Source: Candidatus Nomurabacteria bacterium RIFCSPHIGHO2_01_FULL_37_25
GTDB lineage: Bacteria; Patescibacteriota; Minisyncoccia; Phycocordibacterales; UBA9973
Assembly (NCBI GenBank): GCA_001786765.1
Contig: MFTH01000015.1
Span: 1,548-65,547, forward strand
Direction: 5' to 3'
Length of the DNA stretch: 64,000 bases
A model generated the notes under the pieces. That model was not told the DNA's origin and did no database searches. It saw only the letters and a list, made by a program, of their open reading frames with translations. The translations under genes were made by a program, and so were the position numbers. Position 1 is the stretch's first letter. The number at the start of each line of letters is the position of its first letter. Below are positions 19,431 to 63,927 of the stretch, piece by piece.

Positions 19431-20981
19431 ATGCCAAAGCCAAATCGAGTTCAAATAATAAAATACGGACCTCCGCCACCAGAATTACCTGTTTTTGGCA
19501 AGGTAAAACCGGAAGATGTTTCTTTTATTGGGCGGACAAATTATGTGGCTTCACTGGAAGAAAAGAAGTTTATTTTTGGCATTAAGCGAATAGACAGAAG
19601 ACGCCACCTTTATATCATAGGGAAGTCAGGTGTGGGTAAAACCAAGCTTCTCGAGCTCATGCTTCGACAGGATATTACGTACAAGCATGGGCTTTGCCTG
19701 ATTGACCCACACGGAGATGTGATAGAAGCAATGCTTGACTACATACCAAAAGAACGCATTGAGGACGTCTGCATAATAGACCCCACTGACCTTGATTTTC
19801 CAGCTTCTTTTAATCCGCTCGCGAATGTTGATCCATTATTCAAATTTCAACTAACTCAAGGATTAATCGAAGTTTTTCAAAAACAATTTGGAGCAAACTG
19901 GACACCAAGACTGGAGCACGTTTTCCGTTTTACTTGTCTCGCGCTTTTAGATTATCCGCATGCCACTATGCGCGGAATGATATCTATGCTAACAGATAGA
20001 AATTATCGGCAGAAGGTGGTGGAATATATTACGGACGACATGGTAAAAAGATTCTTCGCTATAGAATTCGCCGATTGGTCTGAAAAATTTGACACCGACG
20101 CCATCATTCCTTTAGTAAATAAACTCGGGCAGTTTCTTTCTGACCCGCTACTACGCAATATTTTTGGACAAAAGCAAAACAAGATAGATATCAGTAAATT
20201 GATGAATGATGAGAAAATTATTTTGATTAATCTTTCAAAAGGTCGCCTCGGTGAAGAAAACTCTTCTTTCCTCGGTTCTATATTTTTAACCAAGATCAAA
20301 CAAGCTGGTATGGAACGCGCCGCTATCCCTGAAAAAGAACGCAAGGACTTTTATATATATGTAGATGAGTTTCAAAATGTGGTAACGCAAACATTTGAAA
20401 ATATTCTCTCTGAAGCGCGCAAATACGGACTCAACCTTACTATGGCGCATCAGTATGTAGGTCAGATTATTACTAAGGTTCATCAAGCTGTGCTCGGCAA
20501 TTGTGGAAGCATCATAACCTTCCGCGTTGGCGGGGAAGACGCAGTTAAGATGAAACCCGAATTCTCTCCACTATTTGATGTGAAGGATATGATTAATCTT
20601 GCCGTGGCGGAATTCTACATAAAAATGACAATAGACGGTGAATCCTATGATCCATTTTCAGCCGAGACTCTACGGGTATTACCTCCAACTCATCCATCAT
20701 ATAAACAAGAAATAATTGACTCATCTCGTAGAAAATATTCTATTCCAAAAGGGGATGCGGCTAAACTCATTGCTGAAGAAGAAGCTACGATAATCAGAAG
20801 CGCAGAAGAAAAAGCGATTATTGAGAGTAAGGCTAAAAGGCTTGCCCGTAGCGCTACGTCCGAAGAAAAAGAGGGGAATGGGGTGGAAGCCCCAACGCTT
20901 GAAGAGGTCGGGGTCCCGACCGAAAGCGTCGGGGAAAAACCTAACCCAAAAACTTCGCAAGAAGCGGAGCCTATGATATAA
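19431..20981 (+). CDS. soluble T4CP/TrwB-like P-loop ATPase, paralog 2
   Basis: GKSGVGKT, DPHGD, IYVDEFQNV; shares long blocks with 14961-16970 (e.g. GQFLS.P.LRNI.GQ, SKGR.GE.NSS.LG); the C-terminus carries a GC-rich repeat. Confidence 0.6.
   Translation: MPKPNRVQIIKYGPPPPELPVFGKVKPEDVSFIGRTNYVASLEEKKFIFGIKRIDRRRHLYIIGKSGVGKTKLLELMLRQDITYKHGLCLIDPHGDVIEAMLDYIPKERIEDVCIIDPTDLDFPASFNPLANVDPLFKFQLTQGLIEVFQKQFGANWTPRLEHVFRFTCLALLDYPHATMRGMISMLTDRNYRQKVVEYITDDMVKRFFAIEFADWSEKFDTDAIIPLVNKLGQFLSDPLLRNIFGQKQNKIDISKLMNDEKIILINLSKGRLGEENSSFLGSIFLTKIKQAGMERAAIPEKERKDFYIYVDEFQNVVTQTFENILSEARKYGLNLTMAHQYVGQIITKVHQAVLGNCGSIITFRVGGEDAVKMKPEFSPLFDVKDMINLAVAEFYIKMTIDGESYDPFSAETLRVLPPTHPSYKQEIIDSSRRKYSIPKGDAAKLIAEEEATIIRSAEEKAIIESKAKRLARSATSEEKEGNGVEAPTLEEVGVPTESVGEKPNPKTSQEAEPMI
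20904..20935 (+). repeat. Family C3 GC-rich hairpin (gaggtcggggtcccgaccgaaagcgtcgggga), in frame at the C-terminus of ATPase paralog 2
   Basis: Encodes VGVPTESVGEK; same element in recR (25871-25917) encodes VGVPTASVGNK. Confidence 0.75.
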
Positions 20982-49948: not shown

Positions 49949-51169
49949 CTAGGGGCTAGGTTCTAATAATAGTTGTGTCGCTTTATCTAATTGTGGATCC
50001 TTTTTATCTTCTAAATCTTTTTTAATAAACTCCACTTCATAATCCGGCGTGAGTCCTTTTCCTTCAATCAAATTTCCATTAGGTGTGAGCCATTTAGCCA
50101 CCGTAATTTTAAGAAGAGTGTCTGGGGTAATTTTTATTGCTTCCTGCACTGAGCCTTTTCCAAAGCTTTGCTTCCCTACCAACTTTGCAATTTTATAATC
50201 TTGCAGAGCCCCAGCCAAGATTTCAGATGCCGAAGCAGATCCACCATCTATCAAGACAACAAACTTTAATTTGTCATTAAATACATCATAACCTCGACTT
50301 CTAAATACTTCTGGTTTTGTGTTGTTGCCATAATCTTCAGTTACAATAATTTTCCCTCCGGGCAAGAACCAGCTTGCCATATCCACCGCCGCATCTAAAT
50401 ATCCACCAGGGTTTCCTCGTAGATCCAGTAACAATTTATCAGTCCCCGATTCGGCAAATTCTTTGATTGCATTACGGAAAAGACTGGCTGAGTTAGCAGA
50501 AAAACTATAAAGTTTTATTACAAAAATACCGTTTGATTGGAGTTCTGTATCAAGGGTTGGAACATCAATGACATCTCTTACAATTTTTATTTCTATCGGA
50601 TCTTTATTCCCCTCACGAAAGATTGTGAGTACAACTTCTGTGCCCTTCTCCCCTCTTATTAATTTAATTGCTTTTTCAATACTTAAACCAGAAGTGACTG
50701 TTTTGTCAATCTTCAAAATTTTATCACCAGGCTTAATGTTTGCCCTATAAGCGGGAGTGTCTTTGAGTGGAGCGATAACTGTGAGAACTTTGTCTTTTAT
50801 GCCAACCTCCATGCCAACTCCAGTAAAGTTGCCAGCTATTTCATCTTCAAAAGCTTGCGCGTCATCCGGGTTAAAAAACACACTGTATGGGTCGTCTAAA
50901 GAGCTCATCAAACCCGAGATAGCGCCATAAATTTTATCTTGGTCAGATGTTTCATCAGCTCTGGGATATTTTTCGTTAATAGTGTTCCAGACCTTCCAAA
51001 AAGAAGCAAAATCTGCATTTGTTGCGATTTGCGTTTCTTTATTAGAAAGACCTATAACTTTATCTATTTCTGGACGATTGTGAACACCAACATAAACACC
51101 AAAAATAAAAAATAAAACAACAAGAAAAACAACAGTAGGAATATATCTTGTTTTTGAGAATTGCTCCAT
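49949..51169 (-). CDS. ctpA: carboxy-terminal processing protease (S41)
   Basis: N-terminal TM, PDZ, GNPGGYL and LIDGGSASASEI S41 motifs. Confidence 0.85.
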   Translation of the reverse strand: MEQFSKTRYIPTVVFLVVLFFIFGVYVGVHNRPEIDKVIGLSNKETQIATNADFASFWKVWNTINEKYPRADETSDQDKIYGAISGLMSSLDDPYSVFFNPDDAQAFEDEIAGNFTGVGMEVGIKDKVLTVIAPLKDTPAYRANIKPGDKILKIDKTVTSGLSIEKAIKLIRGEKGTEVVLTIFREGNKDPIEIKIVRDVIDVPTLDTELQSNGIFVIKLYSFSANSASLFRNAIKEFAESGTDKLLLDLRGNPGGYLDAAVDMASWFLPGGKIIVTEDYGNNTKPEVFRSRGYDVFNDKLKFVVLIDGGSASASEILAGALQDYKIAKLVGKQSFGKGSVQEAIKITPDTLLKITVAKWLTPNGNLIEGKGLTPDYEVEFIKKDLEDKKDPQLDKATQLLLEPSP

Positions 51170-51184
51170 AATCTAAATCAGATA

Positions 51185-51421
51185 TTATATTTCTTTTTTT
51201 ATTTCTTCTCTGTTAAAAAAGTTATTTTCTGAAAAGTTGTCAAAAGTTTTTTCTTCATTATTTTCTTTTACTTTTGATTCTTTATATAGTGTATAACTTA
51301 TGTAAATAAGCCCCAACCCGGAAAGAGTCGTTAAAACATCCTTCCAAGAATATGGAAAGCCTAGATATGGCAATACTGCCACCCAGATGCCTAAAATTAA
51401 AAGTGTGTAGACTTTACGCAT
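51185..51421 (-). CDS. small two-TM membrane protein
   Basis: 78 aa, co-directional with the fibre cluster. Confidence 0.35.
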   Translation of the reverse strand: MRKVYTLLILGIWVAVLPYLGFPYSWKDVLTTLSGLGLIYISYTLYKESKVKENNEEKTFDNFSENNFFNREEIKKEI

Positions 51422-51461
51422 AGAAACATTATACTTTATGATTAAGATATATGCAACGAGA

Positions 51462-52841
51462 TTATTCTTTGAATTTCTTTAGGCAGTATATTAAAAGAGA
51501 AATTACAAAAGCAATTAATAAAACAGGTAGAATGCAATATTCTTGAATCAAGCTAGCTAAAATCATCACCAAAAAAGAAGAACCTACAAAAAAAAGGTAG
51601 AATCTATTCCAAATTTCCTTTTCTGGCATTCTAGATTCTTCATACTTTTTTCTAATCCATAAATGCCAAATCATATATAATGCTAAAAGTATGAGAATGC
51701 CAATTAAAGTACAAATCGATACTAGATTATCAAAACCAGAAAGCAATACATTAGCGACTAAATTATTATCTAAATCTAGATTATCATCTTCTATTTGAGA
51801 CGCATCCCCTTCAGAATTTGTGTCAGAAAATTCTGAGCTCGTCGGACTTGAAAACCCTTCAGAATCTGAACGGTCCGTTGATGAATCATCTGTGTTTACG
51901 GAGGAGTTTCCTCCGTCTATGTTTGGATTATTTGGATTATTCGTAGCGAGTAAAGGTACTGCGAAATATTTTTCAAAACTTATAGTCGGTGGTGAAGCGC
52001 GAGAAACAACACGATAAACATAAGTTTGTCCTGGAGTAAGTCCTGTTATTAATACAGAGTGATGCAAAACTTTGGTTGGGTCTTCAATAGTGCCAGATGG
52101 GTATCCAAAATATAATGCATTCATATCCAGAGTATATAAAGGAGGAGTTGGTCCATAAACGACCTGACTAGTTGACAGAACATTCGTGTCCCAAGTTATT
52201 GTCGCTGTAGCTGTCGCTGGGAATCCGCCTACTTCCGTAATATCTACTGTTTTTTCATTAAATATAGTAAGAACTATTGGCCCTCCCCCACTTCCGCCTC
52301 CATTCGAAGGACCTCCGCCTGTCGAGGGGCCTCCGTCTGTATCATTTTCATCTCCCACAACAGTATCGCCACAATGTTTTGTCCCGCCTGAAAATCCAAC
52401 GCAGACATCAAAACCAAGAGTTTTCCCTTGATAAGAATTATCACTTGAATCAACAAAAGAAATAGTATAAGTAAAAACCTTGGATTCTCCGTTAGTAATT
52501 GCGCCTAAAGAAACTTCACCGGCAGTTGAGAGAAAATTAGCAAGAGTATCATCAAATAAAATTCCGCTAGTTCCTGCTATTTCAAGATGCAAAAGACTGC
52601 CAAAATTATCATTGTCTGTTACATTAATTGCTTCAGTTAAAATAGTCTGTGACGCTCCAGAATTATTGGTGACTGTTATCTCTCCATTTGTTTCATCGCT
52701 AGGTAGAAAGTTGGGTTTGTTAAATAATGGATCCGGGACAAATGTTACCTGAAGCGGCGCGGCGAAAACATTCGAAGTAAAACCAAAGAGCGTTATTATT
52801 GTGAGTACAGAGAATATAAATTTTTGAATTAATGTTTTCAT
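51462..52841 (-). CDS. secreted surface protein with Gly/Pro/Ser linker, acidic S/D-rich region and C-terminal TM anchor
   Basis: Classical signal peptide (..SNVFAAP), DGGPSTGGGPSNGGGSGGGP linker, C-terminal hydrophobic helices. Confidence 0.45.
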   Translation of the reverse strand: MKTLIQKFIFSVLTIITLFGFTSNVFAAPLQVTFVPDPLFNKPNFLPSDETNGEITVTNNSGASQTILTEAINVTDNDNFGSLLHLEIAGTSGILFDDTLANFLSTAGEVSLGAITNGESKVFTYTISFVDSSDNSYQGKTLGFDVCVGFSGGTKHCGDTVVGDENDTDGGPSTGGGPSNGGGSGGGPIVLTIFNEKTVDITEVGGFPATATATITWDTNVLSTSQVVYGPTPPLYTLDMNALYFGYPSGTIEDPTKVLHHSVLITGLTPGQTYVYRVVSRASPPTISFEKYFAVPLLATNNPNNPNIDGGNSSVNTDDSSTDRSDSEGFSSPTSSEFSDTNSEGDASQIEDDNLDLDNNLVANVLLSGFDNLVSICTLIGILILLALYMIWHLWIRKKYEESRMPEKEIWNRFYLFFVGSSFLVMILASLIQEYCILPVLLIAFVISLLIYCLKKFKE

Positions 52842-52845
52842 ATTT

Positions 52846-55335
52846 TTATGGTTGTGGTTCTGTGGCTATTACTTCCGGCGCTGACTCTATAATTTGTTCT
52901 ACTTCACCCGCGGTAGCTTCCGGTAAAGGTTGGGATTCTATAATAGCTCCTTCTGGTTCACTTGCGATAACAGGTTCACTTTCTGTTACTAAAACGGGAA
53001 CCTCTTCAGTTTCGGGCTCTGGTGTTGGAGGTGGTGTGACAGATTCTACTATAGTATCTACTACTTCTAATATTTTTGTTACTGCTTCTGGTACTACTGC
53101 CGGAGGAACATCTTCTATAATTTCTCTCATGGTTTCTTCTGTATTTACTTCGGGATTTATATTTCCTGCTGTCGTCATCTCTACCACTGTTTCTTCTTCT
53201 AGAAGGGTCTCTCCTTTTTCTGCAAGTAAAGCAATGATTAGTTGTATTGTGCCCTCGTCAAGTCCCGCATTTATCAAATCTTGCATACTTACACGATTTG
53301 ACTCCCCGGGTGTTGGTTCTGGGTCAACCCAAATACCGCCGTTTGGAATACGCTGATGTGATTTGCCAACTGCAGTACTTGGATATGCATGTCCATCCAT
53401 AAATATATTTGTAGAATTATATAGACGCACAGTATCACCTGTATTATTTAGACGAGCTGTCAAATTTCCAAACTCAAGAACAAGCAATCCGCCAGACGGA
53501 ATGATTGTACTTGCTCCAGCATACGGCTGTACTTGATTGGCAGTCGCTCCTGAAGCGACCACAGAGTAAAATGTTTCCGTCGCTCCTGCTATTTCTGAAA
53601 TTTTCCAATCTAAAACATCAATAGAAGAAGCGGTGGTGTTGTAAAGTTCTATCCACTCACGATCGCTCGGCGCAACACCACCGGCAGGACTAGGGTAGAT
53701 TTCATTCAGCGCTATATCAGAGACATTAGAAGGAACCGAATAAATTCCAAAGAATGGACCAACGAGAGTTATATTATTAGCGCCTCCAAGTCGTATTTGC
53801 TCAGCGCTGTAAAGCGCGCCCCAAACATCAGTGTTATTGCCTGTGGTAATGCCAAACTCATTGGGTAAGTTACTTTTAGTTGAATAAATTGTGCCGTACC
53901 AATCGTTGCTACCACCTAAACTTACCACGCCACCACTTTCTAAATATATTTTATCTGCAGTTCCACCCGTAAGATTAAAGTCAAGATTGCTACCGGTAGT
54001 TACATCGCCTACTACAAATATGAGTATCTCCCCGCCGGACACATCAGCATTTATAATATTATTCCCAGCTAGACTGAAGGAACGAAAGACGTAAGTTCCC
54101 GCAGTCAAGTTAAGTGTCTTACTGTTAGTACTTGTTAAGTCACGATAAATGCCCGGAGCTAAAGTGAGCGGAGAATTATCGGTATTTATATTTATGTCTT
54201 TACCCGCATCGGCATTTGCGCTAAAAATATTTGGTGTTGGTAGAGAAATATCAGTAAAAGTATCTGGAGTCGCTGGAAGTGGTGTCCCATCATTATTGAG
54301 TGTTCCGACGGTAGCATCACCGACAAGCGTCGGCAATACAGTATTCGGCAATGTAAGAGTTCCTAAAATATCAGCGCTGTTGCCCAAAGTAGCGCTCTGC
54401 GCATCCACATCCAAAGACGCCTGTGTGTTAGCGCCTGTAGAAAATAATCCGCCAGACACAACATCTCCATTAAGATTAGTACTGCTACCGACAGTTACGC
54501 TTGCGCCATGAACACTGCCATTTATAATGTTAGATCCACCTAGTGTCACTGAACCGTTTACGATAATTCCTTTTGCGCCTATTGTAACGTTGTCGTGGGT
54601 AGTTACCTTACTCCCTGCCCGAATGCCGAGCTGTACATTCAAGCTACCAATTTCAACGCTTCTATTACTGCCTATCATTCCACCTACAATGTATGAGCTA
54701 TTGCCTGTTTCAGTTTCATTAGTATCACTTACATCACTTGCGCCAAATACAGCAAAATCCTCAATAGGTCCATAATCCAATCCCCAAGTTTCAGCTGTGA
54801 CTGTATTAGTAATAGTTTCTGTATCGTTAAAGCCTATGGGCGATGGCCCAGTTAAATCCGTCTGCCAACCGAAATATTCAAAATTAAATTCACAAGTCAT
54901 TCCTTCTAATTCAGGCGCGTCTGATGTGAGTGTGGCGGTAAAATCCCAATTTTCTGGCGCGTTAAAATTAAACGGGCCAATTTCAAAAGTGGAGAGCGAC
55001 TCGGTAACTGGCAATCCCCCATCTAAAGAAGCTGATAAATCCAAAGCGTCACACAGACCACCTATCACGCCAGTTGTTTTTATTGTGTATTGAAATCCTA
55101 AACTTCCATCATTTGAAATTGAAATGCTTCGCAGGGCATTAATTTCTGGATTCACCTCCGGCGCAAAGTCAGCGTCAGAGTTGAGTGAAAAATCTAAAGA
55201 GGAAGTAGAGAAAAAATTACCACCGGAAGTTTCTTTATCATCATAATATGCATTTGTTTTTTCTACTCCAGAAAAGCCTAAGGTTAGAAGCAAAATTAAA
55301 GTCAAAGCTATTATTTTATTAGACTTCTTTTTCAT
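52846..55335 (-). CDS. large secreted protein: SipW-cognate-type signal peptide, beta-helix repeats, lamin-tail domain (LTD), acidic Pro/Glu-rich tail
   Basis: N-terminus ...NAYYDDKETSGGNFFSTSSLDF; repeated G-x-hydrophobic beta-helix-like segments (NVTIGAKGIIVNGSVTLGGSNIINGSVHG...); LTD signature LNEIYPSP...EWIELYN...LLVLEF...LNNTGDTVRLYN. Confidence 0.55.
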   Translation of the reverse strand: MKKKSNKIIALTLILLLTLGFSGVEKTNAYYDDKETSGGNFFSTSSLDFSLNSDADFAPEVNPEINALRSISISNDGSLGFQYTIKTTGVIGGLCDALDLSASLDGGLPVTESLSTFEIGPFNFNAPENWDFTATLTSDAPELEGMTCEFNFEYFGWQTDLTGPSPIGFNDTETITNTVTAETWGLDYGPIEDFAVFGASDVSDTNETETGNSSYIVGGMIGSNRSVEIGSLNVQLGIRAGSKVTTHDNVTIGAKGIIVNGSVTLGGSNIINGSVHGASVTVGSSTNLNGDVVSGGLFSTGANTQASLDVDAQSATLGNSADILGTLTLPNTVLPTLVGDATVGTLNNDGTPLPATPDTFTDISLPTPNIFSANADAGKDININTDNSPLTLAPGIYRDLTSTNSKTLNLTAGTYVFRSFSLAGNNIINADVSGGEILIFVVGDVTTGSNLDFNLTGGTADKIYLESGGVVSLGGSNDWYGTIYSTKSNLPNEFGITTGNNTDVWGALYSAEQIRLGGANNITLVGPFFGIYSVPSNVSDIALNEIYPSPAGGVAPSDREWIELYNTTASSIDVLDWKISEIAGATETFYSVVASGATANQVQPYAGASTIIPSGGLLVLEFGNLTARLNNTGDTVRLYNSTNIFMDGHAYPSTAVGKSHQRIPNGGIWVDPEPTPGESNRVSMQDLINAGLDEGTIQLIIALLAEKGETLLEEETVVEMTTAGNINPEVNTEETMREIIEDVPPAVVPEAVTKILEVVDTIVESVTPPPTPEPETEEVPVLVTESEPVIASEPEGAIIESQPLPEATAGEVEQIIESAPEVIATEPQP

Positions 55336-55891
55336 TTTGTATATTTTCTACAACTTCTTCTTTTTGTTTACCCTGAGCTTGTCGAAGGGCTCGCATTTTT
55401 TTAACTTCACTAAATATTTTCATCCCTTCGTCATAAATAACAATAATTGCTGGAAGGATAATAAGAACCGCAAATCCAAGAGGTTTGCGAGCCAAGTCTA
55501 TGATGTAACCCAAAAACGGAATATTAAATAAAACTTTTCCGTGAATATCATTCTGGCGTATTTCATTTGTGTCAGAGTCTTCATTGGCATCCCCTTTGGT
55601 GGTGAACATTATCACCCCACTTTGCGCGCGACTAGAGACTATGCGGTGGGTAGTCGGAATATCTTTTTTTGTGTCTTTGCCAAAAGTCACAACATCTCCC
55701 ACTGTATAATTTAGGCTTGGCTTTATGACAACAATGCTTCCTGTCTTAATGCTCGGTTCCATTGAACCAGATTGCACAATTTTTATTTGATAATTGCCTT
55801 TAATCGGGAAAAGAGCAATCAGTAAAAAAGCGATGACAATAATGATTGTTATGTAAAATGTTGTATAAAGAATTTTAAAGGCTTTATCCAT
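55319..55891 (-). CDS. sipW: signal peptidase I, SipW/Sec11 (ER-type) family
   Basis: N-terminal TM, SGSMEP catalytic-Ser motif, THRIV His motif, C-terminal TM. Confidence 0.75.
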   Translation of the reverse strand: MDKAFKILYTTFYITIIIVIAFLLIALFPIKGNYQIKIVQSGSMEPSIKTGSIVVIKPSLNYTVGDVVTFGKDTKKDIPTTHRIVSSRAQSGVIMFTTKGDANEDSDTNEIRQNDIHGKVLFNIPFLGYIIDLARKPLGFAVLIILPAIIVIYDEGMKIFSEVKKMRALRQAQGKQKEEVVENIQNEKEV

Positions 55892-55985
55892 TTTTTACAG
55901 GCTTTTTAAAAGCCTTATCCTCCCTCACATACTCGATTGCATATGAGGGATTATAAAACTTCAAAATTAATTGAAAATTTTAGTA

Positions 55986-56732
55986 TTATAGATTCACATC
56001 CGCGCACTTGAAGTTTGGATTGTTGCGATACTGTTCACCATAGATAACAAGATCAGCCGAAAGTGAATCGGTTTGAGCCTTGTCGTTCATAGATCCGCCG
56101 TTACATGTTACTTCTCCGCCAAAACCTGCGCCGGGAGCAACTACATGATTTCCTCCACATAGACTCATAGCGAGAAGTTCTGTCTGAATAGGATCAGTAG
56201 GACCATTCCCTGTTGTTGAGTCTCGAAGCGGTAAATCAGTAAAGACATCAAAGAAAGAATCAATGAGAATCGGTTCGTTGGTCTGATGCACTAGGTCCGG
56301 AACAATTTCTTTCCAAACGAGCACATGCACATTTTGACTCAATTCCCCGACAGATGCTGTTGTGTCTCCAGCGTCATCTTCGGCTTCGTTTATGCCATTC
56401 TCTTGATCGTTAAGATTTTTTTTACCGATACAGAGCCAAGCTGGATTACTAGAAACGTGGGCGCTGATACTTCGGTTGTAAATATCAGCCGGCTTTAAAT
56501 CTTCTAAAGTAAAGAATTTCTCATTCGTCAAGTTCATCGCAGGCCAACTCGCATCTTGCACGAGCGCGCCATTGTAAGTCGCTCCGAAAGAGTCAACAGT
56601 AAGATCAACTGAACCAGCGGTAAAGATATTGCCTGTTGAAGTTTCGGTATCATTAAAGAAAGCAACAGTGCCTCCTGCGACAGCTCCGGCAACGACAATA
56701 ATCACAGCCATGCTTAATAATATCTTTTTCAT
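55986..56732 (-). CDS. TasA/camelysin-like protein with SipW-cognate class signal peptide
   Basis: MKKILLSMAVIIVVAGAVAGGTVAFFNDTETSTGNIFTAGSVDL matches the AFFSDTE-type SipW-cognate N-terminus; 248 aa. Confidence 0.7.
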   Translation of the reverse strand: MKKILLSMAVIIVVAGAVAGGTVAFFNDTETSTGNIFTAGSVDLTVDSFGATYNGALVQDASWPAMNLTNEKFFTLEDLKPADIYNRSISAHVSSNPAWLCIGKKNLNDQENGINEAEDDAGDTTASVGELSQNVHVLVWKEIVPDLVHQTNEPILIDSFFDVFTDLPLRDSTTGNGPTDPIQTELLAMSLCGGNHVVAPGAGFGGEVTCNGGSMNDKAQTDSLSADLVIYGEQYRNNPNFKCADVNL

Positions 56733-56758
56733 AGTTTTTTTAGTTAACTAATAAAAGA

Positions 56759-57679
56759 TTAAAGATCAAATGGGCTAGGGTTATTTCTGTGTTGTTCAAC
56801 TTCAAACGCAATATCACCACTTAGGCTGTCAGTTTGGACTTCATTACCAGTACTCCAAGGAAGATTCCAATTTAGACCAAAGTAATAAGTCGTGCTTCCA
56901 ACCATTCTTCCATCTAAAGCTAGACCGTGACAAAGAAGATAATTATTATGACCATCTACACTTCCTCCTAAATCACCACAAGAATCTTCACCGTCTCCGG
57001 TATTATATGCATTTGTTAAGACTGAAGAAAATTCTTTTTCATCAGTTAAACTCCATGGTTGTCCTTCGTATGACTGCCAAACATTATCTCCTTCTGTTGT
57101 ATCAGGACAACTTACTACTGGAACTCCATCAGGACCTACACACTGAAATCCAGGAGTAGAACCTTGGTCAAGCCACATAGAGAATCCAGGAAGCATTGCG
57201 CTTAATAATTCTCCATCAGAATCACAACCAGGATTATTTTCTGCACTTCCTTCCGGCTCCGTACAGGTGTTATCTAAACTACCACCCAATGTCATTAAAA
57301 CTCTCCCCCACGCATCGTTGTCATAAACATGAAGAGAAATTGTGTCCTCTCCTTTGTCTCCTGGTTTAAGATCATCAAAGCTAAAGAATTTATGTACCCC
57401 ATTTTCAAGATCAGTTTCTGACCAATTGCCCATTACTACTGGACCAGTTTCGTCAGGATCTGTACAACCAACATCTACGTATCCATCTCCATTTGGTCCT
57501 GATTGTCCACCAACATATTGGTAATAATGACACTGACTGTCAACTTTCAAATCAATTGCGCCAGCGGTAAAGGTGTTACCTGTTGATGTCTCTGTATCAG
57601 AGAAAAATGCGCCTGTTGCGCCAGCAACTACAACTCCGACCACTGCTATCATACTCAAACTAAGTAATATTTTTTTCAT
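56759..57679 (-). CDS. TasA/camelysin-like protein, paralog 2
   Basis: MKKILLSLSMIAVVGVVVAGATGAFFSDTETSTGNTFTAGAIDL; 306 aa; 63% identical N-terminus to paralog 1. Confidence 0.7.
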   Translation of the reverse strand: MKKILLSLSMIAVVGVVVAGATGAFFSDTETSTGNTFTAGAIDLKVDSQCHYYQYVGGQSGPNGDGYVDVGCTDPDETGPVVMGNWSETDLENGVHKFFSFDDLKPGDKGEDTISLHVYDNDAWGRVLMTLGGSLDNTCTEPEGSAENNPGCDSDGELLSAMLPGFSMWLDQGSTPGFQCVGPDGVPVVSCPDTTEGDNVWQSYEGQPWSLTDEKEFSSVLTNAYNTGDGEDSCGDLGGSVDGHNNYLLCHGLALDGRMVGSTTYYFGLNWNLPWSTGNEVQTDSLSGDIAFEVEQHRNNPSPFDL

Positions 57680-57840
57680 AATTTTATTTTTTTTAATTTA
57701 TAATTTTTAATTTATAATTTTTTCTCGACCTTACGAATTCTTGGTTTTCTGCGAAAACCATAATTTATTTATACACAAGTAGATTATACTCACCTTTTTA
57801 TCCTGTCAAGCTAGGGTGTGAATTGGAAAGTGGATAAAAA

Positions 57841-57916: not shown

Positions 57917-59626
57917 TTATTTGAAATATTCAGGAGTATTAATAGACATCCAATCCAGCAATTGACGCATTATAGATGAAGCGCTAGCCCCACCTGAGGG
58001 TCCGGATTCCATTAATATTGTAAAAGCGTATTTTGGATTTTCATACGGAAAAAAACCTATCACCCAGGAGTTCACTCTCTTTCTGGCGACTCCAAGTTCA
58101 GCTGTGCCTGTTTTAGCAGCAACCTTTACATAAGGCACATTAAGAGCTACCGCAGTGCCATAAGTGACTGCTTGTCGCATACCATCATGCACTATGTCAA
58201 AATATTCTTTTTTTATATTTTCAATTTGATTTTTCTCTTCCATTTTTTTATCACCTAAAATAAAATGCGGGGTAACGAGCGCGCCATAATTAGCGATTGC
58301 TGATACTGCTCTCACTATACCTATTGGAGTAACTTGAAACCCATACTGCCCAATAGAGGTATGATATGTATTCCCAATACGCCAAGGATCACCTGGAAAA
58401 TTTTTTATTTTCCATTCTGGACTTGGAATAACACCCTGCTTTTCACTCGATAAGTCAACTCCCGTCGCCTCTCCGATACCAAAAAGTTTGGCATATTTTT
58501 CAATATTCATAATCCCAAGACCTTTTTGGTCTCCAAAACCCCCTCCAATGCTATAAAAATACACGTCAGAAGAAACAGCTATGGCTTCCGTCATATTTGT
58601 CCAGCCATTTACTCTCCAATCTTTAAAAATAGTTTTCTGATCTGGAAAATAAGGATTCGGAATTGAAATAGAACCAGTTGAAAGAATTTCCTTGTATTGG
58701 TCAATCACACCTTCTGTCAAAGCGCCTAAGCTTAAAAATGGTTTTATAATCGAACCTGGAGTATAAAGCCCCGATATATTTCTATCTAAAAAAAACTTTC
58801 TTTTATCTGTTATATAATTATTAATTATATCTGCATCTTTACCTAAAGATAAAATCTCAGAATCATATTCCGGGAAACTGGTAGAAACTATAATCTCTCC
58901 ATTTTGAATATCCATTAATACCGCTCCCCCGCCTAAAAATCCACTGCGTTGTGATAAATCTTTAATCAAAGTAAATAACTCCATTTGAATTCGTGAATCA
59001 ATGGTTGTTGTTAAATCATTGCCAACCTTTGGAGTATTGATAATATTTTCAGAATGCACAATCCCTCTTGCGTCTGTTTCTATTATTTTTGAACCATTCT
59101 CACCGCTAATCTTTTCATTGTATTGTTTTTCTAATCCAGCTTTACCTATAAATTCGTTTTGCCAATAATTCCCTGAGCTATCTTTGGCTGGATAACTAAT
59201 ATAACCAAGAACATGAGAAAATCCGGGTGATAAATAAGAGCGTGTATATAAGCTAGATGGGTCATCATTTTTTTTATTCCAAACTAATTTTTCTTTATTT
59301 CTATCATAAATCATCCCTCTTTCGGCAAAAATATTTATTTTTTTAAGAATATTATTTTCACTTCTTTTTCTATAAGAATCTCCATTTTGTACTTGAAGAT
59401 TTATCAAACGAATACTAAATATAGATATTATCAATATAAAAAAAATACCGAGATAATTTATTGTTTTCTTAGAGATTGCTTTTTCTATTCTGCCTTCAAA
59501 CTGTTGCGTGTTAAAATTTTCTAAATTTTTTGAATCAAGAAAAATTTCATCCGGTTCCATAAAAGTATTTTTAATTTTATTTACCCCTCTATAATGGCGG
59601 TTTTTTGTAAATTTTTGAAAAATCAT
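57917..59626 (-). CDS. mrdA: penicillin-binding protein 2 (peptidoglycan D,D-transpeptidase)
   Basis: SIIKP (SxxK), SSD (SxN), KTGTAE (KTG) motifs; N-terminal TM plus dimerisation domain. Confidence 0.85.
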   Translation of the reverse strand: MIFQKFTKNRHYRGVNKIKNTFMEPDEIFLDSKNLENFNTQQFEGRIEKAISKKTINYLGIFFILIISIFSIRLINLQVQNGDSYRKRSENNILKKINIFAERGMIYDRNKEKLVWNKKNDDPSSLYTRSYLSPGFSHVLGYISYPAKDSSGNYWQNEFIGKAGLEKQYNEKISGENGSKIIETDARGIVHSENIINTPKVGNDLTTTIDSRIQMELFTLIKDLSQRSGFLGGGAVLMDIQNGEIIVSTSFPEYDSEILSLGKDADIINNYITDKRKFFLDRNISGLYTPGSIIKPFLSLGALTEGVIDQYKEILSTGSISIPNPYFPDQKTIFKDWRVNGWTNMTEAIAVSSDVYFYSIGGGFGDQKGLGIMNIEKYAKLFGIGEATGVDLSSEKQGVIPSPEWKIKNFPGDPWRIGNTYHTSIGQYGFQVTPIGIVRAVSAIANYGALVTPHFILGDKKMEEKNQIENIKKEYFDIVHDGMRQAVTYGTAVALNVPYVKVAAKTGTAELGVARKRVNSWVIGFFPYENPKYAFTILMESGPSGGASASSIMRQLLDWMSINTPEYFK

Positions 59627-59916: not shown

Positions 59917-61332
59917 TTACCTTGAAGCAAGCTTGGAAGCTAGACCAGTATAGTTCTCTGGAGTTATTTTCAACAATTCTTTTTTTATTTTATCACTGAC
60001 GGACAAATCATTTATAAATTTATGAATCTCCACAAGTGTCACCCTTTTACCCCGAGTTAATTCCTTTAATTTCTCATACGGCATAGCTACTTTCTCGCGT
60101 CGGAGAATAGTCTGGATAGCTTCAGTGATAACTTCTGGATGATTATCTAAATCTTGTTTTACGATATTTTCATCCACAGTAATTCCAGCTAATCCTTTTA
60201 ATAAATTTTTATAGGCCACCAAACAATGTCCAAAAGCGGACCCAAAGTTTCTCTCCACCGTAGAATCAGAAAGATCGCGCTGAAGTCTAGAGATTGGTAA
60301 TTTGCGAGCAAAAAACTCAAAAAGCGCGTTGGCTAAGCCTAGATTGCCTTCGCTATTCTCAAACTTAATCGGATTTATTTTATGAGGCATAGTTGAAGAA
60401 CCGACGGCATCCTTTATAAATTTTTGCGTAATCCATCCATCGCTAATATACCGCCAGATATCTTGATTGAAATCAATCAAGATAGTGTTAATTCTGCGTA
60501 AATTATCAAAGATTTCCACTTCACTATCATGAGGGTCGATTTGCGTTGCCGTAAGATTTAATTCAAGTTCTATATTCCTGTTTGTGTTTAATTTTTTAAT
60601 AAAATTTTTAGCAAAAAAAATCCAATCAATTTTTGGAAAAGCAACTATGTGAGCATTGAAGTTCCCTGAAGCGCCACTAAATTTAACAGAAATTTTCTGA
60701 CTCTTTAATTTAATAAGTTGTTTTTTTAGTCTTTCGCTAAAGACTTTGAATTCCTTGCCAAAAGTGGTCGGAGACGCAGGCTGACCGTGCGTGCGCGCGA
60801 GCATTGGCAACCCACTGTATTTTTTTGCAAAGTTATCTATTTTTTTTATGATATGTTCAATTTCGGGTACAATTATTTTTGTTAAAACATCACTTAGCAT
60901 CATACCCCTTGCCAGAGTGTTTGTGTCATAAGAAGTTAAAGCAAAATGTATCCATTCTGAAATATCTACTAAGCTCGTCTTAGACAACTTATATTTTATA
61001 TAATATTCTATTGCTTTTACATCGTGGTCGGTGGCCTTGAAATTTTTGTATCCTTTAATTTCTATATCAGAAATAATTTGCGCGTCTTTTTCTGATAAGT
61101 TGTACAAAGATCTAATTAAACTTTTTTCTTTGTCAGAAAATTTCTTAAGCAGTTTTATATCTGAAAGAGCTATAAGATATTCGCTTTCTACGATGATGCG
61201 ATACTTCATCAACGCCATTTCGCTAAAGTACATACTCAGAACTTCAGTATATTTCTTATAACGTCCGTCTATTGGTGAAATTGAGTTTAATGAATTTGCC
61301 ATGATTTTCTCTATTTTTGAATTACTATTCAT
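59917..61332 (-). CDS. purB: adenylosuccinate lyase
   Basis: Fumarate-lyase family signature GSSTMPHKINP; long-form PurB. Confidence 0.85.
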   Translation of the reverse strand: MNSNSKIEKIMANSLNSISPIDGRYKKYTEVLSMYFSEMALMKYRIIVESEYLIALSDIKLLKKFSDKEKSLIRSLYNLSEKDAQIISDIEIKGYKNFKATDHDVKAIEYYIKYKLSKTSLVDISEWIHFALTSYDTNTLARGMMLSDVLTKIIVPEIEHIIKKIDNFAKKYSGLPMLARTHGQPASPTTFGKEFKVFSERLKKQLIKLKSQKISVKFSGASGNFNAHIVAFPKIDWIFFAKNFIKKLNTNRNIELELNLTATQIDPHDSEVEIFDNLRRINTILIDFNQDIWRYISDGWITQKFIKDAVGSSTMPHKINPIKFENSEGNLGLANALFEFFARKLPISRLQRDLSDSTVERNFGSAFGHCLVAYKNLLKGLAGITVDENIVKQDLDNHPEVITEAIQTILRREKVAMPYEKLKELTRGKRVTLVEIHKFINDLSVSDKIKKELLKITPENYTGLASKLASR

Positions 61333-62263
61333 TTAAATTATATTTTTTTAAATTATTTTCAATTCTTTTTTCAATATCTCCTATTTCTATTTTAAAAGGC
61401 TCTCCAGTAATTTGCTCGCAAATTCTGACATATCTGCTAGAAAGTTCCATTACCATATTAAATGGAGCTTCTGGGAGTTTTTCATTTTTATATGGATCGC
61501 AATTGTCCCTAAACCATAAACGCAGAAATTCTTTATCAAAATTTTCTGGTTCTAGTCCCTCGTCTATTCGCTTTTGATATGAGCTAGCTTGCCAATAACG
61601 GGAAGAGTCCGGAGTGTGAATCTCATCTATGAGCATAATTTCTCTTTCTGGTGTAAGTCCAAATTCATATTTAGTATCCACTAAAATTAATCCCCTTTTC
61701 AAAGCGACCTCTTGCCCTCTCTCAAAAAGTTTCAAAGCAATCTGGCAAACTTTTTGCCAAATTGCTGGTTCCATAAACTTTTCTTCTATCACCATTTTAC
61801 TAGTTAGATTTCTGTCATGCATTTCATGTTTTGTAGTTGGAGTGATGACAGGTTTATCTAATTTTTGATTTTTTTTCATTCCCTCGGGTAAAACAAAATC
61901 TCCAAAATCTCTCTGACCTTTTTGATAATTCACCCAAAGAGAAGTGGAAGTCACTCCAGTAATATACCCCCGCACCACCATCTCCACGGGAAGCACCGCG
62001 CATTTTTTACCCACCACCACATTCGGATCTGGAAAATCTATCACATGATTCGACACAATGTCGCGCGTTTGTTCAAACCAGAATTTACTAGTCTGTGTTA
62101 GAACTTGTCCCTTGTATGGTATCAACGCGAGATTGCGATCAAAAGCCGAATATCTATCAGTTGAAACCATAATTATCTTGTCTTTCTGTATATAGACATC
62201 CCTCACCTTGCCAGTATATTTTTCCCCGAGATTTTTAAAATTTGTTTTTTCTAGAATATTCAT
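61325..62263 (-). CDS. purC: SAICAR synthetase
   Basis: YTGKVRDVY...MVSTDRYSAFD N-terminal signature. Confidence 0.85.
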   Translation of the reverse strand: MNILEKTNFKNLGEKYTGKVRDVYIQKDKIIMVSTDRYSAFDRNLALIPYKGQVLTQTSKFWFEQTRDIVSNHVIDFPDPNVVVGKKCAVLPVEMVVRGYITGVTSTSLWVNYQKGQRDFGDFVLPEGMKKNQKLDKPVITPTTKHEMHDRNLTSKMVIEEKFMEPAIWQKVCQIALKLFERGQEVALKRGLILVDTKYEFGLTPEREIMLIDEIHTPDSSRYWQASSYQKRIDEGLEPENFDKEFLRLWFRDNCDPYKNEKLPEAPFNMVMELSSRYVRICEQITGEPFKIEIGDIEKRIENNLKKYNLNE

Positions 62264-62284
62264 CTTATAAAAAATTAAAAATAA

Positions 62285-63406
62285 TTATTTTCCCGGCGGT
62301 GTAAGAATTATTTTTTCCGGTTCAAATATAACTTGCCGTTTACCTGCCTCTACAATACCGATATCCGCAAGAGTATACCCGCTATTTTTGCCTATTTTCA
62401 GTATTTTAGCAACTTCTTCTCTTGGCGCAAAAATATAATACCCTACTCCCCAATTAAAAGTTTTTAAACAATCTTCTATAGGAATGCCAATTTTTTTATG
62501 AAAATATTCCATAAGCGGCGGAACCGAAAGCCATGAATGAATTCTGTATGTGAATGGTCTTTTGTCAAAAGCTATTTTCCCCACACCATCGCCTGTGCCA
62601 GGCAGTAATGCATGAATCTTTATTTTGTTTTTTAATAATGACTCAACGAGCTTTACATATGAACGAGTAGGGATGAGGGCTTCTGCGCCAATAGTATTTC
62701 CATTTGCTAATTTTGTTAGAAATTGTTTTGGAAGTTCAAGAGATTTTTTAATAACTAAACTTATACCGTTTGCATGAAGCCCAGATGATGCTACGCCAAT
62801 AATATGGTCACCAACGGCTAAATCTTGTCCGGTAATTAAATTTTCTTTTGGCGCAACAAGACCGGTAACTGAACCACTCAAGCTGGCTATTTCCTTGACA
62901 GGACTTTTGGGATTAATTAAATATGTAACACTCGCGGACTCTCCAGCTGGCAATGCCATGCCTACTTCTTTACAGATTTTCAAAAATCCATTTGCAAAAT
63001 CTTTTGACCTTTTTTTATCTCCATACCAATCGCTTCGACTTGCTTCCAGTTGGTCAGTAAAAACTACCGGCATAGCGCCTTGAGCAATGACGTCGTTCAC
63101 CACAATGAGCGCAGTATCAATAGCGATAGAATCATAATAAGATTTACCGGTTTTCTGATACATCCATTCCGCAATCCAATTTTTATTACCGAGGTCTTCC
63201 TGAGTTTGGCACCAGATATGACTTTTTCCTCCGCGGTATTCAAATACTGCGCCATGCGCGTGTGTTGCGTCTTTATTAATGAACACGCCTCTTTTATTTG
63301 GAAACTTTAAAGTTTTTTTTCCCGCTGTGATCATTGCCATTTTGAATGGCTCCATAACAGTATAATCTACCCCCGCCTTTGCATACTCGCTTTTTTTATT
63401 GCTCAT
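62285..63406 (-). CDS. purM: AIR synthetase-family protein (PurM-like)
   Basis: AGVDY, DTALIVVNDVIAQGAMPV, SSGLHANGISLV resemble PurM motifs. Confidence 0.6.
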   Translation of the reverse strand: MSNKKSEYAKAGVDYTVMEPFKMAMITAGKKTLKFPNKRGVFINKDATHAHGAVFEYRGGKSHIWCQTQEDLGNKNWIAEWMYQKTGKSYYDSIAIDTALIVVNDVIAQGAMPVVFTDQLEASRSDWYGDKKRSKDFANGFLKICKEVGMALPAGESASVTYLINPKSPVKEIASLSGSVTGLVAPKENLITGQDLAVGDHIIGVASSGLHANGISLVIKKSLELPKQFLTKLANGNTIGAEALIPTRSYVKLVESLLKNKIKIHALLPGTGDGVGKIAFDKRPFTYRIHSWLSVPPLMEYFHKKIGIPIEDCLKTFNWGVGYYIFAPREEVAKILKIGKNSGYTLADIGIVEAGKRQVIFEPEKIILTPPGK

Positions 63407-63927
63407 TATTTATTTTCCAAGTATTTTTTAAATCCAATTTTTAGAAGTTTTTCTCCTTTAATTTTATTATCTTCTTCTAGCTTTTTTTTATAAATAATCA
63501 TTTTATTTTCTAAACTTTTGTCACTTATCGCAAGTATTTGCAGAGCTAAGATTCCAGCATTTTTCGCCGCATTTATTCCGACGGTTGCGACCGGCACTCC
63601 GGGAGGCATTCCCACAGTTGAGAGCAAGGAATCAAGTCCGTCTAAAGTTTTTGCTTTTGTTGGTACCCCAATAATAGGGAGAGTCGTGAGAGATGCTGCC
63701 ACCCCTGCCAAATGCGCCGCTCCGCCGGCGCCCGCTATAATAATTTTAATTCCTCTGTTTTTAGCATTAGTTACATATTTGCGCGCCAATTCTGAACTTC
63801 GATGCGCAGAAGCGACTGTCATTTCGTAAAATACGCCAAATTCCTCAAGTATTTTTGCCGCTTCAGACATTACTTCTAAATCTGAATCTGAACCCATAAT
63901 TATTCCAACTTTAATGTCTTTTTTCAT
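63406..63927 (-). CDS. purE: N5-CAIR mutase PurE
   Basis: [11 protein letters not shown]...AGGAAHLAG signature. Confidence 0.9.

Follow-up and report, generated by a model that had tools for sequence, protein, structure and literature searches.

A conserved TasA-like gene cluster with a SipW-type signal peptidase in Patescibacteria, a candidate donor-strand fibre locus

In the haloarchaeal Tafi system, the pilins TafA and TafE are accompanied by the signal peptidase TafD (together with TafG), the tip protein TafC, and the membrane anchor TafF (PMC12337348, PMC11821415). Besides Tafi, the sipW-bsaA-bsaB-bsaC genes of Clostridium perfringens (PMC11580942) and TasA-superfamily loci in general (bioRxiv 10.64898/2026.01.04.697558) are precedents for loci that unite subunits with a dedicated signal peptidase, a tip protein, and an anchor. 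In Bacillus subtilis TasA, residues 28-38, located right after the SipW site, form the donor strand, and F29 and F39 are buried in the neighbouring subunit (PMC9674648). Here, we describe a gene cluster comparable to these systems in Candidatus Nomurabacteria bacterium RIFCSPHIGHO2_01_FULL_37_25 (GCA_001786765.1, contig MFTH01000015.1, positions 1,548-65,547 of the forward strand). The whole stretch of 64,000 nt is referred to as the window, and the cluster occupies window positions 51185-57679.

The cluster is a real, conserved, uncharacterised variant of a TasA-superfamily donor-strand fibre locus, for which we document to which classes the substrate motifs and the enzyme belong, the fold, how the domains are related, the synteny, and gene fusions. 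It is likely that its products form a SipW-processed surface structure that polymerises through donor strands. The genes discussed are as follows:

56759-57679, minus strand: T1, TasA-like subunit 1, 306 amino acids (aa), pI 4.05, 8 Cys
55986-56732, minus strand: T2, TasA-like subunit 2, 248 aa, pI 4.2, 4 Cys
55319-55891, minus strand: SipW, a SipW/Sec11-type signal peptidase I, 190 aa
52846-55335, minus strand: p829, a multidomain protein and predicted substrate of SipW, candidate adhesin at the tip or nucleator, 829 aa
51462-52841, minus strand: p459, a membrane-anchored protein and candidate acceptor-only anchor, 459 aa
51185-51421, minus strand: a small two-span membrane protein, 78 aa

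The first-pass annotation, made from the DNA sequence, had assigned the N-termini of T1 and T2 to the SipW-cognate class, and the family models place them there. T1 and T2 scored 25.6 and 35.1 bits, respectively, with TIGR04088 (cognate_SipW; cutoff of 19) and are thus members of this class, and they scored 25.5 and 27.9 bits with PF12389 (gathering score of 22.5). The motifs that it had quoted (GAFFSDTETSTGNTFTAGAIDL, NAYYDDKETSGGNFFSTSSLDF, SGSMEP, and THRIV) are all present in the cluster proteins. The PF12389 match was confined to residues ~6-49 (residues 11-49 on T1) and to positions ~6-50 of the 196 profile positions, which correspond to the signal peptide and the donor strand; thus, the mature subunit domains are too diverged to be recognised by Pfam. 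The predicted features of the two subunits (↓, cleavage site) are:

T1, predicted cleavage T-G-A24↓F25-F-S-D; candidate donor strand at residues 25-44 (window 57548-57607, minus strand)
T2, signal helix and predicted cleavage T-V-A24↓F25-F-N-D; candidate donor strand at residues 25-44 (window 56601-56660, minus strand)
T2, jelly-roll core at residues 43-234, after the donor strand

T2 can be aligned with TasA in exact register. The TasA reference sequence (which matches 8aur_A at every position from 28 to 261) reads G-T-W-A↓A-F-N-D ... F39 ... G-T-L-D-L, and T2 reads G-T-V-A24↓F25-F-N-D ... F37 ... G-S-V-D-L. A profile comparison of the T2 family with TasA using hhalign gave a probability of 90% (E 1.4e-6) over TasA residues 3-78, a region that runs from the signal peptide through the donor strand to the 'LKPGD' strand. 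As the TasA donor strand lies at residues 28-38, what the 'signal peptide' models recognise is for the most part the donor strand. The two paralogues share 45% identity across their first 124 aa and were aligned together in A1, an alignment of 71 T2 homologues. The residues T22, A24, D28, E30-S32, G34, N35, A39, and G40 were invariant in the 71 homologues, so that 10 of the 24 invariant columns of A1 fall within residues 22-40, where conservation in the family peaks. The motif T-x-A↓F-F-x-D-x-E was found near residue 25 in 167 of 209 paralogues from 80 species.

All structure predictions were monomer models. The AlphaFold2 (AF2) model of T2, built from A1 with a mean confidence (pLDDT) of 81.7, consists of a signal helix (residues 2-23), a disordered segment (residues 21-39), and a beta-rich core (residues 43-234). 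The core is a jelly-roll, the fold that had been proposed for a check of the TasA-like proteins, and its best structural match in the PDB by two methods was the TasA fibre; the fold is therefore that of the TasA superfamily, i.e., a jelly-roll or beta-sandwich nearest to TasA-type subunits. The disorder of the segment in the model, the register match to TasA residues 28-46, and the extreme conservation lend indirect support to polymerisation by donor-strand complementation. Two further invariant residues of A1 are N35, two residues before the donor F37, and K80 (window 56493-56495), located in the LKP(G/A)D strand. The position of N35 is occupied by Ala in TasA, and the Lys is absent from p829- and p459-type domains. 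By analogy with BsaA of C. perfringens, an isopeptide lock between Asn35 and Lys80 of adjacent subunits would be a possibility.

The peptidase had been taken as a Sec11/SipW-type enzyme and not LepB, and the searches bear this out. SipW scored 107 bits with the archaeal-type signal peptidase I model TIGR02228 (cutoff of 51.85) and 28.8 bits with the bacterial LepB model TIGR02227, which is under the cutoff of 47. It aligned with human SEC11A (7p2p; E 3.5e-10), with S43, H82, and D101/D107 matching the catalytic motifs; its own motifs are SGSMEP at residues 41-46 (Ser43), THRIV at residues 81-85 (His82), and GDANEDSD at residues 100-107. Membrane spans are located at both the N-terminus and the C-terminus. 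From the TIGR02228 match and the SEC11A catalytic motifs, SipW is a SipW/Sec11-type (ER/archaeal-type, S26B) enzyme, with Ser-His(-Asp) as catalytic residues in place of the Ser-Lys of LepB. Its homologues numbered 2090.

Relatives of the locus were identified in 363 places by scanning one genome per GTDB species, and the best 80 of the 363 were analysed as loci after annotation with local phmmer. All of the best 80 belong to Patescibacteria (Parcubacteria lineages, Moranbacteria, Chisholmbacteria, CPR3, and Minisyncoccia), and the closest named relatives are Parcubacteria/Paceibacteria. The T2 family comprised 448 word-indexed homologues, and an exhaustive profile search retrieved 4672 clusters (50% identity, E<=1e-3), 924 of them at E<=1e-30. 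Each locus carried one to six tandem TasA-like genes; 33 loci had two copies, 32 had three, and nine had four. T1-like orthologues take the first array position in related loci. The first-pass annotation had named unlinked TasA-like genes in relatives as a reason to abandon its reading; in 72 of the 80 loci, sipW lies directly downstream of the TasA-like array, and in six of the eight exceptions the locus is cut by a contig edge. Its other two grounds for giving up the reading, a lack of TasA or SipW-cognate HMM matches and a LepB-type peptidase, did not materialise either. The full order seen in the window, T-T-SipW-(p829-type with or without a lamin-tail domain (LTD))-(p459-type), was found in ~25 loci, in which the sipW, p829-type, and p459-type genes typically overlap by a few bases. 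The flanking genes vary between genomes, and the five genes thus make up a self-contained module. The arrangement is well beyond chance, as it turns up in dozens of independent genomes whose flanks differ.

Some of the contigs (L016, L019/L010, L023, L029, and L087) were labelled 'uncultured Gammaproteobacteria' or 'Desulfobacterales'. Mislabelled or mis-binned metagenome-assembled genomes (MAGs) probably explain such labels, rather than a wider distribution. Contigs from groundwater metagenomes, among them Rifle samples, also carry identical copies of T2 with the same neighbour genes.

A second architecture, T-T-T(-T)-SipW, was identified in 23 related Patescibacteria loci, in which SipW is a single open reading frame (ORF) of 320-730 aa. 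The fused ORF comprises, in order, the SipW domain with two spans, a basic linker, a third hydrophobic span, and the complete cognate motif G-T-x-S/A-Y-F-x-D-x-E-x-S..N; it ends in either a sandwich of the p829 type, an LTD, or an acidic tail. The fused-SipW loci are:

L022, L023, L025, L028, L033-L035, L040, L044, L049, L055, and L062
L068, L070, L072, L077, L079, L084, L085, and L087-L090
Example of the fused ORF: L055:12958-15153

The sipW gene thus adjoins its cognate substrates in the window and in 72 of the 80 related loci, and the two are joined in the 23 fusions. Since these ORFs join the peptidase and its substrate in one polypeptide, they are strong independent evidence of the SipW-substrate relationship. 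None of the TasA-superfamily papers that we read describes a signal peptidase fused in this way.

p829 had been described as a beta-helix/LTD protein, which agrees with its structure model (AF2, pLDDT 75.8), and the following parts can be distinguished (window positions on the minus strand):

Residues 7-23: signal helix
Residues 29/30: predicted cleavage site, T-N-A29↓Y30-Y-D-D
Residues 30-44: donor-like segment, inside a disordered stretch (24-46)
Residues 50-181 (window 54793-55188): TasA-related beta-sandwich
Residues 194-523 (window 53767-54756): beta-solenoid, pLDDT above 90
Residues 536-671 (window 53323-53730): lamin-tail domain (541-671 in the AF2 model)
Residues 684-706: short helices
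Residues 716-829: disordered, acidic Pro/Glu/Val-rich tail

The same kind of signal peptide as in T1 and T2 had also been proposed for p829. Its cleavage motif T-x-A↓(F/Y)(F/Y)xDxE was confirmed, and the TIGR04088 model gave no match at E<=1. In A2, the alignment of the p829 family (18 sequences), the N-termini read ...T-x-A↓Y-(Y/F)-N-D-T-E-(T/S)-S..N.F.A.S-L-D-F-S-L, and PF12389 matched six of the 18 members. The N-terminus of p829 aligned with that of T2 (pairwise E 3e-5), and the N-terminal part of the family aligned with TasA residues 22-89 (hhalign probability of 94%, E 8.5e-8). The LTD was recognised by PF00932 at the Pfam gathering score. The solenoid is tapirin/ice-binding-like in the structure model, and its combination with the LTD suggests a tip adhesin.

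The last gene of the conserved order, p459, had been annotated as an anchored surface protein, and membrane spans were indeed located at its C-terminus. Its parts are:

Residues 27/28: cleavage site of an ordinary signal peptide, V-F-A27↓A28
Residues 28-172 (window 52326-52760, minus strand): N-terminal sandwich, followed by a Gly-rich linker
Residues 210-288 (window 51978-52214, minus strand): FN3-like domain, followed by a low-complexity stalk
Residues 362-455: three C-terminal hydrophobic spans

The FN3-like domain matched Pur_ac_phosph_N (PF16656, E 1.2e-9). Profile-profile comparison showed homology between the p829 sandwich (residues 55-185) and the N-terminal p459 domain (residues 28-172; hhalign probability of 97.5%, E 8e-12). 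In an alignment with the N-termini included, the first mature residue of p459 (A28) was paired with S45 of p829. Because of this alignment, the p459-type domain equals the p829-type domain minus the donor-like segment of ~15 residues, and since it is precisely the donor segment that is deleted, p459 has the appearance of an anchor that only accepts a strand. The ordinary signal peptide and the motif PLF.E.NFLPGD...V.NN were present in all 28 p459 orthologues examined, most of which carry the FN3-like domain, the low-complexity stalk, and one to three C-terminal spans followed by basic residues. The p459-type gene follows the p829-type gene in ~25 loci.

The cluster is located between ctpA (49949-51169; PDZ and Peptidase_S41 domains) and PBP2 (57917-59626), where seven co-directional genes had been counted in the first pass; all genes are indeed on the minus strand, and the ORF list contains six. 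The gaps between the 78-aa ORF and p459 (40 nt), T2 and sipW (94 nt), T1 and T2 (26 nt), and T1 and PBP2 (237 nt) leave no space for a seventh gene. p829 and p459 are separated by 4 nt, and sipW and p829 overlap by 17 nt in different frames. The secreted cluster proteins are all acidic (pI 4.0-4.3), and the GC content is 0.39-0.41 over the cluster and about 0.35 in the window. The 78-aa ORF had no family match in Pfam and NCBIfam searches and was present in the near-identical contigs L001-L005 and in none of the 80 species-level loci. Given this restriction, it probably lies outside the conserved module, and it was rejected as a component of the system. ctpA and PBP2 were likewise rejected, as their adjacency is not conserved.

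Two features give weak evidence on expression:

55892-55985, minus strand: structured intergenic RNA of 94 nt between T2 and sipW, with three hairpins and no U-tract
57783-57809, minus strand: hand-read promoter-like element TTGACA-15 nt-TATAAT upstream of T1

The RNA of the T2-sipW spacer had a minimum free energy of -31.2 kcal/mol (z -5.74), and of 36 related loci in which the equivalent gap measures 40 nt or more, 27 have a structured one (z < -2, mononucleotide shuffles). The spacer may act as an mRNA-stabilising, processing, or attenuating element and could set the ratio of subunits to accessory proteins. The promoter/terminator scan found no intrinsic terminator in the operon, and Rfam and tRNA scans of the window returned nothing at the gathering score; a PyrG-leader match at 35782-35857 (34 bits against 65) was taken as chance. 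The TTGACA/TATAAT element has perfect hexamers, is a unique exact match, and is followed by an A/T-rich leader of ~100 nt. It was missed by the consensus scan because its 15-nt spacer is outside the scanned 16-18 nt, and it may serve as the T1 promoter.

Expression of a related sipW was reported in Ca. Microsyncoccus archaeolyticus PMX.50, a cultured archaeal parasite and Paceibacteria relative, for which the expression data list sipW (PMX.50_00004) as expressed and lepB at zero (PMC10936435). In the same data, PMX.50_00003, located beside sipW, is among the top five expressed secreted proteins and is described as a 'galactose-binding-like fold' (PMC10936435); it is a possible TasA-like subunit. 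The PMX.50 protein was not among the matches of our SipW homologue search. Another PMX.50 locus (L061:8974-10233) contains a lone TasA-like gene of 419 aa with no sipW within 8 kb.

On the mechanism proposed here, T1, T2, and p829 would be exported by Sec and cut after the invariant T-x-A by the endoplasmic reticulum (ER)-type SipW of the operon. Cleavage would expose the N-terminal segment (F/Y)(F/Y)xDxETSxGNxFxAGxxDL, which is alignable residue for residue to TasA 28-46. By homology, the exposed segment would insert into the beta-sandwich of the neighbouring subunit, and the acidic jelly-roll proteins T1 and T2 would form a fibre. p829 may join one end of the fibre via its donor segment as an adhesin and/or nucleator, a counterpart of TapA or TafC, and p459 may accept a donor strand and hold the structure at the cell, as TafF does. 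The structured RNA and translational coupling of the sipW, p829, and p459 genes could keep the subunits abundant and the accessory proteins scarce. In a cell-attached, ultra-small bacterium, such a structure might, speculatively, mediate adhesion to surfaces, sister cells, or a host. Within this scheme, the specific roles of p829 as the tip and p459 as the anchor are tentative assignments with an even chance at best. In its most detailed form, the proposal is that of a type IV pilus-independent attachment organelle of Paceibacteria, consisting of a heteropolymeric fibre of two or more paralogues with a possible covalent Asn35-Lys80 lock, a p459 tether, and a solenoid/LTD cap that would bind the host or a surface, with SipW and its substrate serving in the fused lineages as a self-processing assembly platform; this combination as a whole is unlikely to be correct in every part.

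Several results weigh against a donor-strand fibre. T1 and T2 are not TasA equivalogs (11-14 bits with NF046066 against a cutoff of 450), and a search of PDB sequences with the T2-family profile gave no match, so that it is the N-terminus and the fold that connect the family to TasA. When the shared N-terminus was removed, hhalign gave a probability of 3% against the TasA core, and comparisons of the TasA-like core with the N-terminal domains of p829 and p459 and with the TasA core gave 3-24%. We thus claim no core homology to TasA by sequence beyond the N-terminus and the 'LKPGD' strand. SipW scored 125.8 bits with the equivalog model NF046067, below the cutoff of 190, and is therefore the same type of enzyme as Bacillus SipW and not its equivalog. 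The consensus promoter scan of the operon was overall not above the shuffled expectation, and the cleavage and polymerisation of the locus proteins are predictions drawn from their sequences.

The proteins could also be assembled in another geometry. The TasA-like proteins might form a sheet, sheath, tube, or S-layer-like coat, with p459 serving for envelope attachment and p829 displayed separately, which we consider quite unlikely. The present data do not discriminate geometry; the best structural match is a linear TasA fibre, and the logic of subunits, tip-like adhesin, and anchor fits the pilus-like Tafi and Bsa systems. We regard it as very unlikely that T1 and T2 are secreted monomeric effectors, such as a camelysin-type metalloprotease or a carbohydrate-binding or antimicrobial protein, which merely share SipW export. 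A protease identity was rejected because the HExxH motif occurs in none of the cluster proteins, nor does any other zinc-protease motif, and the peptidase label of CalY is itself a likely misidentification (PMC11580942). Moreover, the strongest conservation is found in the donor-equivalent segment after the cleavage site, which a plain export signal does not need and which is disordered in the monomer model.

A coincidental adjacency or an annotation artefact, with SipW as a general signal peptidase and its neighbours as unrelated surface proteins, would be compatible with the frequent presence of a single signal peptidase in small genomes and with the general envelope functions of the adjoining ctpA and PBP2. 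It is extremely improbable, since the linkage persists in most of the 80 loci despite changing flanks, the enzyme and substrate are fused in 23 loci, p459 in the same operon carries a different, ordinary A-x-A signal peptide, and a cultured relative has both lepB and sipW (PMC10936435 Table S4).

Many members of the T2 family are considerably longer, at 400-700 aa (P0079-P0120 and many others, e.g., P0085 and P0086; L009:7660-10248). They contain an insertion of ~170 residues between the donor strand and the core, often with C-x-T-C, or C-terminal extensions, and subunits of this kind therefore carry variable display domains.

The remainder of the window consists mostly of housekeeping and cell-wall genes, among which three regions were noted:

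14961-16970, 17625-19406, and 19431-20981, plus strand: two VirD4/TrwB-like coupling-protein ATPases flanking a 593-aa ORF without Pfam match; one ATPase has a treble-clef zinc finger, and the set lies in a housekeeping region between dnaK and dnaJ
35143-35751, minus strand: a 202-aa ORF without Pfam match in the most GC-rich 2-kb stretch (0.44 against about 0.35), which may be a foreign gene; the sub-threshold PyrG-leader match is located beside it
59917-63927, minus strand (and L001:213-5903): a de novo purine biosynthesis run with purB, purC, purM, and purE in the window and purH just outside it

Many Patescibacteria are thought to be unable to make nucleotides, and the purine gene run is therefore noteworthy.

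The attachment of ultra-small, host-dependent Patescibacteria to surfaces and partner cells is a central open question, and the leading molecular candidates so far have been type IV pili. The locus described here is a second, widespread candidate for attachment with a clear parts list of subunits, peptidase, adhesin, and anchor; fibre formation and host attachment are both inferred. If they are confirmed, the p829 adhesin could be a handle on host recognition. The locus also extends the TasA donor-strand fibre superfamily into a phylum that RefSeq-based surveys miss, and it suggests that anchors could be sought, quite simply, as copies of the domain without its donor strand. RefSeq-based maps of the TasA superfamily omit these MAG-only lineages (bioRxiv 10.64898/2026.01.04.697558).

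The first-pass annotation had called the apparatus possibly undescribed. We found no dedicated study of the system in the Candidate Phyla Radiation (CPR)/Patescibacteria, which is in line with that suggestion; against it stand one sentence of Wang et al. 2022 that names Patescibacteria among the phyla with PF12389 homologues (PMC9245690) and the label 'TasA family protein' that NCBI already gives to some relatives.

Comparisons with more distant systems were also made. The AbpA/AbpB bundling pili of Pyrobaculum (PMC9245690) and TasA-superfamily threads and cannulae were included; the ABP operon is without a dedicated signal peptidase, its sequences are far more distant, and it occurs in hyperthermophilic archaea. 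Tapirins, the ComZ pilus-tip protein, and the DUF3494 ice-binding proteins were compared with the central domain of p829 only. The p829 solenoid is joined to a TasA-type donor strand, a sandwich, and an LTD, whereas proteins of the tapirin/ComZ kind are joined to a type IV pilin.

The nearest bacterial models are tapA-sipW-tasA and sipW-bsaA-bsaB-bsaC. The tapA-sipW-tasA operon of B. subtilis and the sipW-tasA-calY genes of B. cereus likewise have the gene of an ER-type peptidase beside those of its substrates. The cleavage and donor register (T-x-A↓ followed by F-x-D ... F..G.LDL) is common to both, the jelly-roll subunit matches the TasA fibre, and a second protein carries a donor-type N-terminus (TapA in Bacillus and p829 here). 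In contrast to Bacillus, the mature subunit domain here is not recognised by the Pfam and NCBIfam TasA models, each locus has at least two tandem paralogues in the order subunits-sipW-accessories, one accessory protein has a beta-solenoid and an LTD while the other lacks a donor segment and is membrane-anchored through its C-terminus, and the host phylum is Patescibacteria. The absence of a TapA-like gene, which had been noted in the first pass, is correct by sequence, as none of the six cluster proteins matched TapA/YqxM in NCBIfam or Pfam at E<=1. p829 and p459 qualify this absence, since both carry TasA-related N-terminal sandwiches and are plausible functional counterparts; p829, with its donor-type N-terminus on an accessory protein, is a possible functional analogue of TapA.

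Like our locus, the Bsa system encodes a SipW along with two paralogues remotely similar to TasA and a large secreted protein of the adhesin type, and its donor strand likewise lies right after the SipW site, with N35/F37 in BsaA corresponding to N35/F37 in T2. In BsaA, E56 catalyses the intermolecular isopeptide bond that links N35 to K74. BsaC differs from p829 in being a vWA protein, not a solenoid/LTD protein, and its secretion needs type IV pilus proteins; a membrane anchor protein is not described for the Bsa operon.

Compared by architecture alone, the nearest system in locus logic is Tafi. It differs in being archaeal and largely exported by Tat (twin-arginine translocation), its DUF5305 partner is absent here, and the anchor spans are C-terminal in p459. 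Tafi combines major and minor donor-strand pilins, a dedicated peptidase, a multidomain tip that has one domain in common with the rest of the pilus, and an anchor consisting of a membrane helix and a jelly-roll-like domain, and the locus described here follows the same logic.

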